NCBI GenBank assembly: GCA_964562105.1 | Contig: CAZLRP010000001.1 | Span: 2,949-66,948 of the forward strand | Origin: an uncultured Candidatus Saccharibacteria bacterium | GTDB taxonomy: Bacteria; Patescibacteriota; Minisyncoccia; Phycocordibacterales; GWA1-40-21 | Length of the DNA stretch: 64,000 nt | Direction: 5' to 3' | In this document: one piece after another, positions 8,300 to 59,430 of the stretch | Numbering within the stretch: the stretch's first letter is position 1 | Layout of the letters: each line of letters opens with the position of its first letter | Position numbers and translations under genes: made by a program | Notes under the pieces: generated by a model | Databases searched by the model: none | What the model was told of the DNA's origin: nothing | Seen by the model: the letters and a program-made list of their open reading frames with translations, nothing else

Positions 8300-8345
8300 T
8301 TTAATATGCGAATATACGAATTATGCGAATGATACGAATGGCTAC
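8300..8345. repeat. heptamer array upstream of fusA
   Basis: ATGCGAATATACGAATTATGCGAATGATACGAATGGCTAC. Confidence 0.65.
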
Positions 8346-16339: not shown

Positions 16340-16385
16340 GAATTATTCGTAGCCATTCGTAACATTCGAATAATTTTCGTATATT
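16340..16385. repeat. heptamer array
   Basis: ATTCGTAGCCATTCGTAACATTCGAATAATTTTCGTATAT directly before an ATG. Confidence 0.65.
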
Positions 16386-25319: not shown

Positions 25320-25377
25320 TTATATTTATTCGTAGCCATTCGTAGATTTGTATCATTCGTATATTTGTATGTTTATC
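25320..25377. repeat. heptamer array
   Basis: TATTCGTAGCCATTCGTAGATTTGTATCATTCGTATATTTGTATGTTTATC, ending at a gene stop. Confidence 0.65.
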
Positions 25378-26913: not shown

Positions 26914-27597
26914 TCACTGTCTTCTATATTTTTTTTGCTGCCGTTTTTCCACACTTAATGCTTTCTCTATCTTTATCCTCTTTCTACCTAAGCAAACGAC
27001 TTTTCGATTATAATACATTGCCTTGATAATTTCTATAGCTTCTTTTTTGGCATATTTTAATTGTCCAGTTGACTTTTCTCCATCATTCGTGATGTGCCCA
27101 AAAACATTAATCCTGTTCGTTAACTCCGACCTCAACCAATTAATATGTTTCTTGCTCGCTGAAACAAACTCAACATAAAACATATGGCTTGAACGCCAAC
27201 GCGGATCCCAATACGAATAAAAAGTTCCGTCTCCATCAAAACAACCGCGTAAAAAATCAAAAAAATACTCTGATGGAATATCAACAACTCCTAAGCTTTT
27301 CGATTTTGCCCTGCTAATACCTATGGATTCTAAAAATTTGTAGAAAAAAATATCACTAAATTGCACTACATAATATTTCTTTTCTTTGTTTCCGCCGTTG
27401 CCTTTTTTGCCTACATTACATTTAATCCGTAATGCTTTTTGATAATTATCAATTTGTTCCTTGTCTTTGGAAGTAAAACTCACATGCCTACCATCTGGCG
27501 ATACGTTGCCATCAGTCGCAATCAAACCAATAGCATAAGCAAAATTCGGTGACCATGTTATTTTTACTTTTGCCTTTGGCTTTGGTCCTCTTTTCAT
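26914..27597 (-). CDS. LAGLIDADG homing endonuclease (two-motif, free-standing)
   Basis: YAIGLIATDGN and LRGCFDGDGTF LAGLIDADG motifs. Confidence 0.8.
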   Translation of the reverse strand: MKRGPKPKAKVKITWSPNFAYAIGLIATDGNVSPDGRHVSFTSKDKEQIDNYQKALRIKCNVGKKGNGGNKEKKYYVVQFSDIFFYKFLESIGISRAKSKSLGVVDIPSEYFFDFLRGCFDGDGTFYSYWDPRWRSSHMFYVEFVSASKKHINWLRSELTNRINVFGHITNDGEKSTGQLKYAKKEAIEIIKAMYYNRKVVCLGRKRIKIEKALSVEKRQQKKYRRQ

Positions 27598-27712: not shown

Positions 27713-28123
27713 CTACTTTTCACTTTCAACTTTTCTAGTATCCGTATTGCTTTCAAGTCTCGCTCCCAAAAGTTCGCTCTTTAAATGTCTCTTAAGTTCT
27801 TTTGTGGCTTTCTCTCTAATATAATAAAGTTTTGATCTTCTCACTTTTGCTCTCTTCAAAATTTCTATTGAATCTATTACAGGTGAATATAATGGGAAAA
27901 TTCTTTCAACCCCCACTTCATCCACTACCCTTCTCACAGTGAAAGTTCCTCCGTTTTCTTTTCCATGTTTTACAGCCAAAATCATACCTTCAAATGCTTG
28001 GAGTCTAGTCTTGTCACCTTCTTGAATTTTCTGCCAAACACGAACGGTATCGCCTGATCTCATATCAATTTTTTTCCTAGCTTCTATATCTATTGGCGAT
28101 ATTTTAATATTTTTCAATTCCAT
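27713..28123 (-). CDS. rplS: 50S ribosomal protein L19
   Basis: GDTVRVWQKIQEGDKTRLQAFEGMILA...RRSKLYYIRE L19 pattern. Confidence 0.9.
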   Translation of the reverse strand: MELKNIKISPIDIEARKKIDMRSGDTVRVWQKIQEGDKTRLQAFEGMILAVKHGKENGGTFTVRRVVDEVGVERIFPLYSPVIDSIEILKRAKVRRSKLYYIREKATKELKRHLKSELLGARLESNTDTRKVESEK

Positions 28124-28178
28124 AATATCAACAAACTAACATAATAATATGCTTTTTGCAATCGTTTTTTTGTAACGA

Positions 28179-29186
28179 TTAATTAGAAACTGTAACGGTC
28201 ATATTTTGAACTTTTTTTCTCAATTTTTTAGCATTGCCATAAGACAGCAATCCTAGATACGATTGTACTGTTTCCATCTTACCTTCTTTGAGTTCAATAT
28301 TTTTAAACATTCTTCTTTTTGTGACAGTCCTTATCACACAGTGATCGGGAAAATGTACCCAACCGAGAAAATCAATACCTGAAGTCAGTGTTTTCAAAAA
28401 TAATTTATCTGGATGTAATGTAAGCCTCAATTCATTCCAAAGAAACTCATTGATTTTAGGTATTGTATTTTCTAGCCGAGTTTTGTCTTGCGATAAAACT
28501 ACAAAATCATCAGCATATCTTATGTAATATTTTGCTTTTAGTTTGTGCTTTATGAACTGATCAAATTCATTCATATAAATATTCACTAGAAGTTGTGATG
28601 TTAAATTTCCAAGTGGCAAACCCCTCCCTTTCTCGGTAGAGTAAAAACTATGAATAATTTCGGATAGTAAATTGATGATATCCCCATCTGGTATATATTT
28701 ATTTAATATTTTCAATAAAATTTTTTGGTCTATTGAAGCAAAAAATTTCTTTATATCACATTTTAGAACCCAGACTGTTTTTGTGTTATTTTTTGAAACT
28801 TTATTTGAAAAACTTTTAAATCTTCTTATAGCTTTATGGGTTCCTTTTCCTAATCTACAAGAATATGAATCGGCAATAAAAGTCTTATCAAAAAACGGGT
28901 ACAATTTTCTATAAAGAGCGTGGTGCAAAAGTCTATCTCTGATTTTTGCTTTATGTATATTTCTTGGTTTTGGATCAGAAATATTAAATGCTTCATATAA
29001 AGAATGTTTGTAGGTTTTATTTTTTAATTCCATATGAAGTAAAATAATATTTGTCATTAAATGTCTTTGAAATTCCTCCACATCCTTGCGAGACTTTTTA
29101 CCAACAACAAATTCCCTCCACGCCTCTAGCAGGTTTTCCATTTCAATGATATTCTCATAACTGTCAGTAAGTTGGATTTTAGACAT
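28179..29186 (-). CDS. diversity-generating retroelement (DGR) reverse transcriptase
   Basis: RT motifs including YADD (IRYADDFVV); the DGR-specific LGNLTSQ variant of motif 4; adjacent TR/VR pair. Confidence 0.85.
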   Translation of the reverse strand: MSKIQLTDSYENIIEMENLLEAWREFVVGKKSRKDVEEFQRHLMTNIILLHMELKNKTYKHSLYEAFNISDPKPRNIHKAKIRDRLLHHALYRKLYPFFDKTFIADSYSCRLGKGTHKAIRRFKSFSNKVSKNNTKTVWVLKCDIKKFFASIDQKILLKILNKYIPDGDIINLLSEIIHSFYSTEKGRGLPLGNLTSQLLVNIYMNEFDQFIKHKLKAKYYIRYADDFVVLSQDKTRLENTIPKINEFLWNELRLTLHPDKLFLKTLTSGIDFLGWVHFPDHCVIRTVTKRRMFKNIELKEGKMETVQSYLGLLSYGNAKKLRKKVQNMTVTVSN

Positions 29187-29229
29187 AATTATTAGACCAT
29201 AAAAAATTAAACTATGATGCCCCCCCCCC
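29187..29229. promoter_or_regulatory. 27-bp divergent spacer between the RT and avd starts, plus the C10/G10 homopolymeric tract
   Basis: RT ATG at 29186 (minus), avd ATGATG at 29214 (plus), C10 at 29220-29229. Confidence 0.5.
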
Positions 29230-29610
29230 GAACAAAGACAGAAATTATTACCGCTTTTACAAAAAGTAAAAACTGTTTATATTCTTTGGTATGAATATTA
29301 TCAAATATTACCCAAACCACACAGATATTCTCTTGGCAACAGAATTGATACCCTTTTTGTAGAAATAATAGAAGCAATATCCATAGCAAGTTTTTTGCCA
29401 AAAGAAGAAAAAAGAACTTACATATCTATCGCCATCAGAAAACTTGATACGTTAAAAATCCTAATAATGGTTCTTTGGGAAACAAAATCACTGGACAATA
29501 AAAAGTATATCGCCCTATCGCTTCATCTGGATGAAATCGGGAAAATGCTCGGCGGTTGGAACGGGCAAATATTAAAACAAAACTCTCCCGCAAAAGCAGG
29601 AGAGAAATGA
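29214..29610 (+). CDS. avd: Avd-like DGR accessory protein (four-helix bundle), frame interrupted by a C10 tract
   Basis: Translation ...YQILPKPHRYSLGNRIDTLFVEIIEAISIASF...LHLDEIGKMLGGWNGQILKQNSPAKAGEK resembles Bordetella phage bAvd as recalled from memory (no alignment was run), including its C-terminus; the ATGATG start joins this frame only if the C10 run is C9. Confidence 0.6.
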
Positions 29611-29616
29611 AAAGAG

Positions 29617-29745
29617 TTGTGAACGCCAGCAAACCGATAGTTATCGTTCCAGTCTTCATCAAACCAATTCAGGTTCAGCTTACGCCTGCTGTCGTTCTCG
29701 TTGAGGTAAGCCACGTTGCGGTTGCCGTTAAGCTTGCAGACAGAA
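29617..29745 (-). repeat. DGR template repeat (TR)
   Basis: Adenine-rich copy (AAC codons: NGNRN, NEND, NLN, NDN in the target frame), invariant partner of the VR. Confidence 0.85.
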
Positions 29746-29799
29746 ATGTGCAAAATACCGTCTATGCCACCATCCCTTGAATACTCTAAGGATTGAATC

Positions 29800-30039
29800 T
29801 TATTTGACATCGTAATGCCTTAATATATTGCACCAAGTATCTTCATTTTTTGTGAAGAGTCTACATAAGTCCTCTGTTTGAAACCTTAGTCGCAAACGCT
29901 CCCAACTTATGGATACTGGATTCGGCAGTGAGAAACCGTAATCGCTCACATATTCACCTAATACCGATTTTATTTTAGCATAAAAAAACAGCTCGTCTAT
30001 CTTTACTGCTTTCGCAGTTTGGATAAACGAGCCGTTCAA
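29800..30039 (-). CDS. small ORF between VR and TR (hypothetical)
   Basis: 79-aa ORF only; no motif. Confidence 0.2.
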   Translation of the reverse strand: MNGSFIQTAKAVKIDELFFYAKIKSVLGEYVSDYGFSLPNPVSISWERLRLRFQTEDLCRLFTKNEDTWCNILRHYDVK

Positions 30040-30103
30040 ATCGAAAGAACTAAGTTCAAAGTTTCAAAGTGCAAGTACACAGTGACACAAAACTAAGTTC
30101 TAA

Positions 30104-30697
30104 TTACTTGTGAACGCCAGCAAACCGATAGCGAGCGCGCCAGTCTTCAACAAACCAATCCAGGCTCAGCCTACGCCTGCTGCCGCTCTCGCTGAGGTAA
30201 GCCACGCGGCGGCGGCCGCAAAGCTTGCAGACAGAACCGAGAGCAACAATGGGGAATTTTCTCTGAAGGTTCGGCTCTTTGACAGAGAGACCTAAAAGGT
30301 CTTGGATTGTGGCAGGTTTGTAGCCAGCTTTGTCCATCTCGGCGATTGCATCTTTCGAGGAAATGCTTTTATTGAAGTGAAAAATCGCCACTTCCTTGTC
30401 TACTTTTTTGCCATCTTTCAGCTTAGGGAAGGTTTTGGAAGTGATGTCGTCGTTCGCCCAATCAAACTTACCGAGCTTAATCGCCTCTTCCACGGAAATG
30501 GTCTCGTCAACCGGAACCATAAAGGTGTGGGTGATGAAGTTGGTCATTTTCGTGATTTCCACTGGTGGACACAAAGCTTCCTTCAGAGTTTTTTGCAAAC
30601 CCTTGGGATTTTCTATCCATCCCTGCATGAGACTGCTGTCCATTTCGGGCAGATTTTCTGCGATGCTAGCTACCAACTTTGCTGTTTGCTTATCCAT
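30104..30697 (-). CDS. DGR target protein with C-terminal variable repeat
   Basis: C-terminal 39 codons are the VR; good RBS (AGGAGG) upstream; ends ...YRFAGVHK at the VR end. Confidence 0.8.
   Translation of the reverse strand: MDKQTAKLVASIAENLPEMDSSLMQGWIENPKGLQKTLKEALCPPVEITKMTNFITHTFMVPVDETISVEEAIKLGKFDWANDDITSKTFPKLKDGKKVDKEVAIFHFNKSISSKDAIAEMDKAGYKPATIQDLLGLSVKEPNLQRKFPIVALGSVCKLCGRRRVAYLSESGSRRRLSLDWFVEDWRARYRFAGVHK
30109..30225 (-). repeat. DGR variable repeat (VR) at the 3' end of the target gene
   Basis: Differs from TR only where TR has A; runs to the target gene's stop codon. Confidence 0.85.
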
Positions 30698-30699
30698 AG

Positions 30700-30925
30700 T
30701 GTTTTTTCCTCCTTTGATAAGGTTTTCACTATTTGCTTGGCTACTGTGTATATTTAATAGTCATAGCCAGAAGACCTCAATTTTTAAGAGCTTTTGGCTA
30801 TGACTATTTTGCAAGTATTTAAAAGAACCACCGGTAATAGTGTACACTGTTTGATATTTTTTGTCAAGATTTTTGAATTTGAAATTATTTTTTAATTTTA
30901 AACTTTATTTTTACTTTTTTCTCTT
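30700..30925. promoter_or_regulatory. upstream region of the DGR target gene with a 12-bp inverted repeat TAGTCATAGCCA...TGGCTATGACTA
   Basis: hairpin at 30758-30806 on the coding side upstream of the AGGAGG RBS. Confidence 0.35.
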
Positions 30926-31743
30926 TACTTTTTAAGTTTACTTATTGCTTCCTCAAAATCTTTCGGGTAAGGAGCGATAATGGTTAATATTTTTTTTGAA
31001 AGAAGATTTATTTCCAATTCTCTTGCATGAAGCGCCATTCTTTTAAATCCCAATTGTTGTTTTTTGTTCAAATAAAAATTCGTGGCATAAAGTTTATCTT
31101 GCACTATTGGATGATTTATAGCACTAAAATGAACTCTTATCTGATGCGTTCTACCGGTTTTTGGTATCGCTTCCACAAAAGTAATATCGTTTATTTTATT
31201 CAAAACTTTAAAATATGTTACGGCCTCACGCGCTTCGCCTCTAATACCTCTTTGGGCTGTCCATTTACGAAAATCAGTTGAGCTTCTGCCTATCGGCCTG
31301 TTTATCATTCCCCTTTCATCTTTGACGTCGCCATAAACAAAAGCCTGGTAAACTTTGCGAACCTTTCTGTCTTTAAATTGTTTTTTTAGAAATTCAAATG
31401 ATTCTTTGTTTTTTGCAATGATAAGAACACCGCTCGTATCTCTATCAATCCTGTGAACTATTCCCGGCCTCAATATTTTTTTACCCGCTAAAGTTTTGCC
31501 TGACGCATTGGACTTTTTGTCCAATGCACGGAAAATCTTGGATTTTCCATCAGGCAAAATTTTTTCGGGTGAACCATCATCAAGAATAATTGGTTCACCG
31601 ACATTTTTTATGCGAGGATATTTTTTCAAAATCCAATCTACCAAAGTTTTTTCCTTGGTTTTTCCATCAAAATGAACAACTAGACCGGCGGGCTTGTTTA
31701 TAATCACGACATCTTTATTTTCGTAGAGAATAGAGATTTTCAT
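30925..31743 (-). CDS. RluA family pseudouridine synthase
   Basis: HRIDRDTSGVLIIAK catalytic motif. Confidence 0.85.
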   Translation of the reverse strand: MKISILYENKDVVIINKPAGLVVHFDGKTKEKTLVDWILKKYPRIKNVGEPIILDDGSPEKILPDGKSKIFRALDKKSNASGKTLAGKKILRPGIVHRIDRDTSGVLIIAKNKESFEFLKKQFKDRKVRKVYQAFVYGDVKDERGMINRPIGRSSTDFRKWTAQRGIRGEAREAVTYFKVLNKINDITFVEAIPKTGRTHQIRVHFSAINHPIVQDKLYATNFYLNKKQQLGFKRMALHARELEINLLSKKILTIIAPYPKDFEEAISKLKK

Positions 31744-33974: not shown

Positions 33975-34035
33975 AATTGTATTTATTCGTTGCCATTCGT
34001 ATCATTTGTATAATTCGTATATTCGTATGTTTATC
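33975..34035. repeat. heptamer array
   Basis: TATTCGTTGCCATTCGTATCATTTGTATAATTCGTATATTCGTATGTTTATC. Confidence 0.65.
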
Positions 34036-43339: not shown

Positions 43340-43450
43340 AGATACGAATATACAAATAATACTAATGATACGAATGGCAACGAATAAGAAATTAATTTGA
43401 TTCATTTGTAGCCATTTGTAACATTCGCATAATTCGTTAATTCGTATATC
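43340..43450. repeat. heptamer array (long)
   Basis: GATACGAATATACAAATAATACTAATGATACGAATGGCAACGAATAAG...TTGTAGCCATTTGTAACATTCGCATAATTCGTTAATTCGTATATC before an ATG. Confidence 0.7.
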
Positions 43451-59359: not shown

Positions 59360-59430
59360 CCCAGGTTAAATTGTATTTATTCGTAGCCATTCGTATCATT
59401 CGCATAATTCGTTGATTCGTATGTTTATCT
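59360..59430. repeat. heptamer array
   Basis: TATTCGTAGCCATTCGTATCATTCGCATAATTCGTTGATTCGTATGTTTATC. Confidence 0.65.

Follow-up and report, generated by a model that had tools for sequence, protein, structure and literature searches.

A putative contingency repeat in the first codons of avd that may switch DGR mutagenesis in CPR bacteria

How an avd gene can be expressed that has no usable start codon in its own frame is the question raised by a DGR located in the stretch of DNA analysed here, which is 64 kb long and is referred to as the window. The Avd reading frame lacks an ATG of its own, and the sole start codons open to it are those of a tandem ATGATG (29214-29219, plus strand), which is directly followed by a homopolymer of ten C's (C10, 29220-29229, plus strand). 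With ten C's the tandem is out of frame with Avd by +1 nt, and it is in frame with C9 or C12. On the other strand the tract reads as G10 and lies 34-43 nt upstream of the ATG of the RT gene (29186, minus strand), the distance from tract to ATG being 33 nt. This layout had been described in a sequence-only reading of the locus and could be confirmed in all its parts, with the avd start codon being a presumed one here and in the following.

The locus is a genuine DGR. Its reverse transcriptase (RT; 335 aa, 28179-29186, minus strand) is encoded divergently from avd, matches RVT_1 at 1.5e-25 and contains the motif LGNLTSQ; no NCBIfam RT family reached its cut-off. A template repeat (TR) of 129 nt (29617-29745, minus strand) is 86% identical to the variable repeat (VR; 30108-30236, minus strand), and the mismatches between them are found at TR adenines in 18/18 cases, with 18 of the 36 A's of the TR being changed. 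The VR constitutes the 3' end of the target gene and ends one codon before its stop. This target gene (30104-30697, minus strand) encodes 197 aa with a C-terminus that is formed by the VR, and it has no match in Pfam or NCBIfam. As in the DGR of Bordetella phage BPP-1 (avd-TR-brt), the TR-to-VR mutagenesis is adenine-specific, the RT possesses the [LIV]GxxxSQ motif, and Avd is of the four-helix-bundle type. In BPP-1, all parts lie on one strand and avd has no repeat, whereas in the window avd is inverted between TR and RT, stands head-to-head with the RT gene and carries the repeat. The layout TR-(avd)-RT corresponds to architecture B3, which accounts for 90% of CPR DGRs (Wu et al. 2018, PMC5758913).

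The minus strand encodes a hairpin directly behind the 3' end of the TR (CTCTCCTGC/GCGGGAGAG, then TTTTGTTTTA; 29583-29604, with the T-run extending to ~29573), antisense to the conserved avd C-terminus KQNSP..GEK. Of 131 related loci, at least 103 have a hairpin followed by a U-run, the stems of which differ between loci yet stay complementary, as judged from fold inspection and not from a formal test. This terminator-like hairpin may end the TR RNA, in which case the RT would need its own promoter; alternatively, it may be an element recognized by the RT. Two overlapping promoter-like sites, CTGTCA-17-CATAAT and TAGACA-16-AAAAAT (29161-29207, plus strand), lie just ahead of the avd ATG within the 5' coding region of the RT; they match the consensus at 9/12 positions each and are weak evidence for an avd promoter. 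A search of Rfam over positions 28000-31000 gave nothing relevant. The region that directly follows the DGR RT gene holds rplS (27713-28123) and, next to it, a free-standing ORF (227 aa, 26914-27597, minus strand) that resembles LAGLIDADG homing endonucleases.

The Avd reading frame (29218-29610, plus strand) opens just past a TGA (29215-29217) and ends with the stop codon TGA at 29608-29610. Its product is recognized by the Pfam family bAvd (PF22296) with 43.6 bits at a gathering cut-off of 40, and it matches NCBIfam DivGenRetAVD with E=1e-18, which is under the equivalog cut-off. An AF2 model predicts a four-helix bundle with a pLDDT of 90, in which the helices comprise residues 11-27, 32-58, 61-87 and 93-120 (numbered from 29221), and the first 10 residues, including the PPP that is encoded by the tract, form a disordered N-terminal tail with a pLDDT of ~59. 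By Foldseek the model resembles the Bordetella phage Avd structures 4dwl and 8ub7 (TM 0.76-0.91); a sequence search of the PDB gave no significant match. Both the Avd profile and helix 1 begin right behind the tract, at KLLPLLQK.

Translation from the ATG of the sequence as it stands gives MMPPPRTKTEIITAFTKSKNCLYSLV and then terminates. The Avd frame is closed by the TGA at 29215-29217, and neither ATG, GTG nor TTG is found in it until a TTG at 29395. The sequence-only reading had named a TTG as the sole in-frame start, but the fallback ORF of 71 aa from this first in-frame TTG (29395-29610, plus strand) begins at residue 59 of the model and would hold helices 3-4 only, which means that helices 1 and 2 are both lost and not helix 1 alone. 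Likewise, the removal of one C indeed joins the ATG to the Avd frame, as had been proposed, and so does the addition of two, but the repaired protein has 131 aa and not 133. An alternative genetic code with UGA read as Gly was considered and rejected: reading past the TGA at 29215-29217 still hits a TAA at 29200-29202 without having met a start codon, and avd itself ends in TGA.

The C10 tract is the sole G/C run of 7 or more in the window, which has 34% GC and in which ~0.003 C10 runs are expected by chance; among the proline codons of the long ORFs in the window, CCC is the rarest (10%). A Logan assembly of run SRR13007705 is 100% identical to the window over 4931 nt, C10 included, so that for the window's own organism C10 alone has been seen, in two assemblies that possibly share reads. 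In the three sister loci L001, L002 and L003, the ATG directly abuts a C10 tract with the same offset as in the window. The window also contains dispersed short tandem arrays with a 9-nt unit, ATTCGTATC (CGAATGATA on the other strand), at 1558-1667, 8303-8340, 16345-16368, 25337-25370, 33994-34028, 43341-43445 and 59379-59422, which look like a dispersed genome-specific repeat.

The repaired Avd has ~2,700 homologues, essentially all of them from CPR/Patescibacteria, and for the RT the number of homologues is ~8,000. Many of the Avd homologues possess PP, PPP or PPPP just ahead of LLPLLQK, and several gene calls are truncated there. For a comparison at the nucleotide level, 160 loci from species-representative genomes and metagenomes were collected, which are the closest relatives (Avd identity of at least 58%) and form a sample that is biased accordingly; each locus was anchored on the first codon of LLPLLQK, and 134 loci were left after removal of duplicates. 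In all 144 loci in which an RT was found, it lies on the strand opposite to avd, head to head, with its ATG ~23-60 nt from the anchor. A simple repeat occupies the exact avd site in 117 of the 134 non-redundant loci, so that the tract for which the sequence-only reading had advised to look in related DGRs is indeed found at the same place. It is poly-C in 104 of them, with a mode at C10 (C7 in 7 loci, C8 in 11, C9 in 29, C10 in 40, C11 in 15 and C12 in 2), and it mostly ends 0-10 nt ahead of the helix-1 codons LLPLLQK. Another repeat stands there in 13 loci, namely (GA)6-22, (CA)8-17, (CA)n(GA)n, (CAAT)7, (CAAC)4-9 or (CAGC)6-8, and in the other 17 the site is without a repeat or shows no more than C6 or an interruption of the run, as in CCCTCCC. 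Across 570 kb of related loci, G/C runs of 8 or more occur 96 times at the avd site versus twice elsewhere.

As several unrelated motifs occupy one and the same site, the conserved feature is a slippage-prone repeat; neither a peptide nor a G-rich RNA element nor a fixed sequence is maintained. A functional poly-proline motif in particular was rejected, as other loci encode RERERE, HTHT or QSIN-type repeats at this position. A scan of viral contigs (IMG/VR) yielded a single relative, L201, with ~24 GA units at the avd site (664-701). The single non-CPR Avd compared, that of a Vibrio phage (L202), has the canonical same-strand layout and no repeat. One locus without an avd repeat, L041, has a 14-nt G run at the C-terminus of its RT (1998-2011, RT strand), which extends the RT ORF to 396 aa.

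The consequence of the repeat for the reading frame was assessed by scoring as ON every locus in which the Avd frame is joined to a start codon located ahead of the repeat. By this definition, 42 of the loci with a repeat are ON and 75 are OFF, and the ON fraction of 36% is not different from the 1/3 that is expected for a random frame. The poly-C loci are distributed over the three frames as 35:38:23, and after exclusion of Nanopore-derived MAGs 32 of 96 are ON and 64 OFF. Among the loci without a repeat, a small control group (n=17), 14 are ON and 3 OFF, which corresponds to 82% ON and differs from the loci with a repeat (Fisher's exact p=4e-4). The chance-level frame with a repeat versus 82% ON without one indicates that the stretch upstream of the repeat is coding and that it is the repeat that randomises the frame. 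Nevertheless, the avd ORF is intact from anchor to stop in all 75 OFF loci, with 115-134 codons as in ON loci. The window and L001, L002, L003 and L005 are all OFF, and dN/dS among them is 0.02-0.10 at a dS of ~0.8 or more; for the window avd against its relatives, dN/dS is 0.02-0.07 at saturating dS. A scrambled frame in a gene that is yet under strong protein-level selection is the signature of an intermittently expressed, phase-variable gene.

Length differences between near-identical populations could be followed with RT proteins that are present on several contigs, as the same RT was then retrieved from different samples, which gave nine identical-RT groups. The repeat length varies in seven of these nine groups, with 0-1 flank substitutions in most pairs over ~1-2.6 kb and a maximum of six. 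In group P0220, contigs with no substitution in 2.6 kb carry (CA)18, (CA)16 and (CA)15, and avd is called with 80, 137 and 114 aa, respectively; they come from three JGI samples (3300006072, 3300025838 and 3300004806), while P0216 and P0181 are represented in the Ga05580xx series. Poly-C lengths are C11 in three contigs, C10 and C9 in P0216; C11 in two, C10 and C9 in P0240; C11 in four and C12 in P0181; C9 in three and C10 in P0234; and C10 in three and C11 in P0217. In P0142, C9 and C6 were found in replicate samples from one aquifer well, with six flank substitutions. The tract is uniform in P0224 (C9, seen twice) and P0127 (C10, six samples). Three further flank-identical pairs differ in the repeat alone, with C9/C10, C10/C11 and (CA)8/(CA)12. 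ON and OFF states are found together within RT groups, and the length changes toggle the avd ORF. Differences of one nucleotide in homopolymers of low-coverage short-read contigs may be errors; this does not concern the di- and tetranucleotide repeats and the difference of 3 nt. The reproducibility of the calls, as with C10 in 6/6 samples of P0127 and C11 in four samples of P0181, argues that assembly calls are not noise.

Some of these contigs deserve separate mention. Those of L004, L089 and L194 end (position 1) inside or beside the repeat, which fits assembly breaks from length heterogeneity or poor coverage. In L165 and L167-L170, which stem from the same aquifer, the P0142 RT is 5'-truncated and joined to unrelated DNA, and avd is missing; they look like a rearranged or decayed copy beside the intact DGR of L164 and L166. 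In L176 (1854-1860), L177 (1854-1862) and L178 (1692-1701), a second poly-G tract of 7, 9 and 10 nt, respectively, lies between TTGCCA and TATAAT (TTGCCA-N8-G7/9/10-TATAAT), 28 nt past the stop codon of the RT and ahead of a gene for a secreted PG_binding_1 protein. It is a promoter-spacer tract of the classic type, and its length differs between samples in which the RT is identical.

From this comparison of sequences, we think it rather probable that C10, lying within the first codons of avd, functions as a contingency (phase-variation) repeat and gates Avd and hence DGR mutagenesis, and that the window is in the OFF state. Slipped-strand mispairing at replication would change the length of the tract, and full-length Avd would be made only from lengths that set the upstream ATG in frame, which are C9 or C12 in the window. 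Other lengths, such as the C10 of the window, would lead to a dead-end peptide of 26 residues. Through the tract, adenine mutagenesis of the target gene would thus be active in only a minority of cells and silent in all others, and the window would represent an OFF state that is one deletion away from ON. In Bordetella phage, the one system studied, Avd is the obligatory partner of the DGR RT (summarised in PMC5758913), and with such a requirement the repeat would turn mutagenic retrohoming on and off. We infer that the window's DGR depends on Avd by analogy to that phage, that switching takes place within the window's organism as well, and that the switch acts at the level of the DNA rather than at that of RNA or ribosome. 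The phase-variable avd that the sequence-only reading had suggested is therefore strongly supported by comparison, through the 117 of 134 loci with a repeat and through the length differences that toggle the ORF between near-identical populations; in the window's organism, both assemblies have C10 alone.

Two findings speak against a switch and at the same time for an alternative that we regard as unlikely, namely that the tract is a programmed recoding site. Here either the ribosome, by tRNA-Pro slipping +1 on CCC-C in front of a CGA that would be slow to decode, or the RNA polymerase would slip, every tract length would yield a small and roughly constant amount of Avd, and the repeat would function as an attenuator. 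The first of these findings is that the closest multi-sample relative, the species of L001, has C10 and is out of frame in 6/6 samples, and the second that a chance-level in-frame fraction is also expected if the DNA frame did not matter; the family-wide distribution of 35:38:23 indeed looks as if the frame were nearly neutral. In the ATG frame the window reads CCC CCC CCC CGA, which is a textbook-like +1 context, and the window, L001, L002 and L003 have all kept ATG-C10 with the same +1 offset despite a dS of >0.8. Given the uniform C10 and the same offset in three sister species, the C10 state itself could be functional, for example by +1 ribosomal frameshifting at CCC-C-GA. However, 13 loci possess di- or tetranucleotide repeats, which toggle the ORF at the DNA level, and productive slippage of ribosome or RNA polymerase on repeats of this kind is not known; the slippage that is documented for the E. 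coli RNA polymerase takes place at A/T and not at G/C runs. Moreover, the OFF loci need -1 or +1 corrections in comparable numbers (38 vs 23), so that no single recoding direction fits, and the frame offset, which a programmed +1 site would keep across homologues, is conserved only in the four closest relatives.

More doubtful still is a second alternative, in which the repeat chiefly serves the RT gene and the effect on the avd frame is collateral. The G-run in the 5' leader of the RT would then be a Shine-Dalgarno-like sequence, a part of a leader structure or a promoter spacer. This would be in line with the location of the repeat, which in the majority of loci precedes the RT ATG by ~2-25 nt (mode near 14; 4 nt in P0216), and with the repeat-less loci L012, L054, L093 and L128, which have CCTCC or CCCTCCC at the site and thus GGAGG on the RT strand. 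In the window, however, the run is 34 nt away from the RT ATG, and the (TC)n, (TG)n, (ATTG)n and (GCTG)n repeats that other loci show on the RT strand are devoid of Shine-Dalgarno character. A G-run acting as RT Shine-Dalgarno sequence is possible in some loci, but it was rejected for the window on account of this distance, and some relatives, such as those in P0224, have their own GAGGA between run and ATG. An influence of the tract on the spacing of an RT promoter, as contemplated in the sequence-only reading, is not supported either: the tract is not flanked by a pair of promoter-like hexamers on the minus strand of the window, and the repeats of relatives, which lie ~5-40 nt from the RT ATG, are up to 30-45 nt long and therefore incompatible with a promoter spacer of 16-18 nt. 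A hand-picked candidate, TTGTTC-N18-TTTAAT, matches at only 8/12 positions, does not pass the criteria of the scan and lacks conservation in L001. Also, a change in run length leaves the RT-proximal end of the repeat in place, and the distance of the repeat to avd helix 1, mostly 0-10 nt, varies much less than its distance to the RT ATG.

We give even less credence to the view that the C10 of the window is a homopolymer miscall of a true C9 and that avd is an ordinary intact gene, an explanation that had been raised together with the switch. Errors of one nucleotide in length occur at G/C runs of ten or more on all sequencing platforms, a C9 would give a clean Avd of 131 aa, and the relative L200 indeed has C9 and is in frame. 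On the other hand, the second assembler also arrived at C10, and the three sister species also have C10, as does the closest multi-sample relative in each of its six samples. Repeated calls within RT groups are reproducible, and about 2/3 of the 104 poly-C loci are out of frame, which remains so (64/96) after excluding Nanopore MAGs. Finally, that avd is a frameshifted pseudogene and the DGR dead or Avd-independent, as had been envisaged for a uniform C10, is barely credible and contradicted by the data: although the sequence as it stands offers no standard start codon from which full-length Avd could be made, the window ORF is intact over 131 codons and under the purifying constraint given above, all 75 out-of-frame related loci retain an intact ORF, dN/dS is 0.02-0.10 among out-of-frame relatives, and the VR displays 18 adenine-specific changes.

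A contingency repeat in avd, as we prefer to interpret the tract, would have much in common with the contingency loci of Campylobacter jejuni, Neisseria and Haemophilus influenzae. There too, the first codons of an ORF contain a G/C run (7-12) or an array of di- or tetranucleotides, changes in its length shift the frame, and genomes that are otherwise identical differ in tract length; in any given genome sequence many copies are OFF, and interrupted, "locked" tracts occur. The tetranucleotide repeat (CAAT)n is that of the H. influenzae contingency locus lic1A. Classical contingency loci gate surface structures or restriction-modification enzymes in host-adapted pathogens, whereas the gene gated here would be a cofactor of targeted hypermutation in free-living or episymbiotic CPR bacteria. 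Phasevarions, which depend on phase-variable Type III mod methyltransferases that carry SSRs, are likewise based on a repeat in a single small regulatory or accessory gene, by which a system-wide process downstream is toggled stochastically; the output of the avd repeat would differ in being mutagenic retrohoming of one target gene and not methylation-dependent regulation. In the promoter-spacer homopolymers of Neisseria porA/opc and Bordetella fim, the length of a G/C run modulates expression. The tract between avd and RT is unlike these in that it is not bracketed by -35/-10 hexamers.

The type of repeat is therefore known, and it is the gated function that is new, a contingency repeat on the cofactor of a targeted hypermutation system. 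In the literature that was searched in full text, which included DGR surveys and had Paul et al. 2017 (Nat Microbiol) outside its scope, no repeats, frameshifts or phase variation in avd are described. About 2/3 of the avd genes compared here are missed or truncated by gene callers, and DGR surveys that require an annotated avd will consequently under-count or mis-classify CPR DGRs.

We consider the arguments to be evenly poised on a broader statement, namely that across much of the CPR an evolutionarily maintained contingency repeat in avd gates DGRs. It would act as a stochastic mutation switch over targeted hypermutation and thus as a case of second-order evolvability, with ~2/3 of natural populations being OFF at any time and with unrelated motifs having repeatedly replaced one another at the site. 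Constant diversification would erase well-adapted variants, and if the statement is true, a random switch in an essential cofactor would be a simple answer to the question of how DGR mutagenesis stays rare and regulated in the CPR bacteria, which are the largest natural reservoir of DGRs. The avd switch is testable in existing metagenomes, in which the in-frame fraction can be compared with VR diversification over samples and time series. Contingency loci are known mainly from host-adapted pathogens, and the avd repeat, if the interpretation is true, would be clear evidence for contingency loci at work in Patescibacteria.
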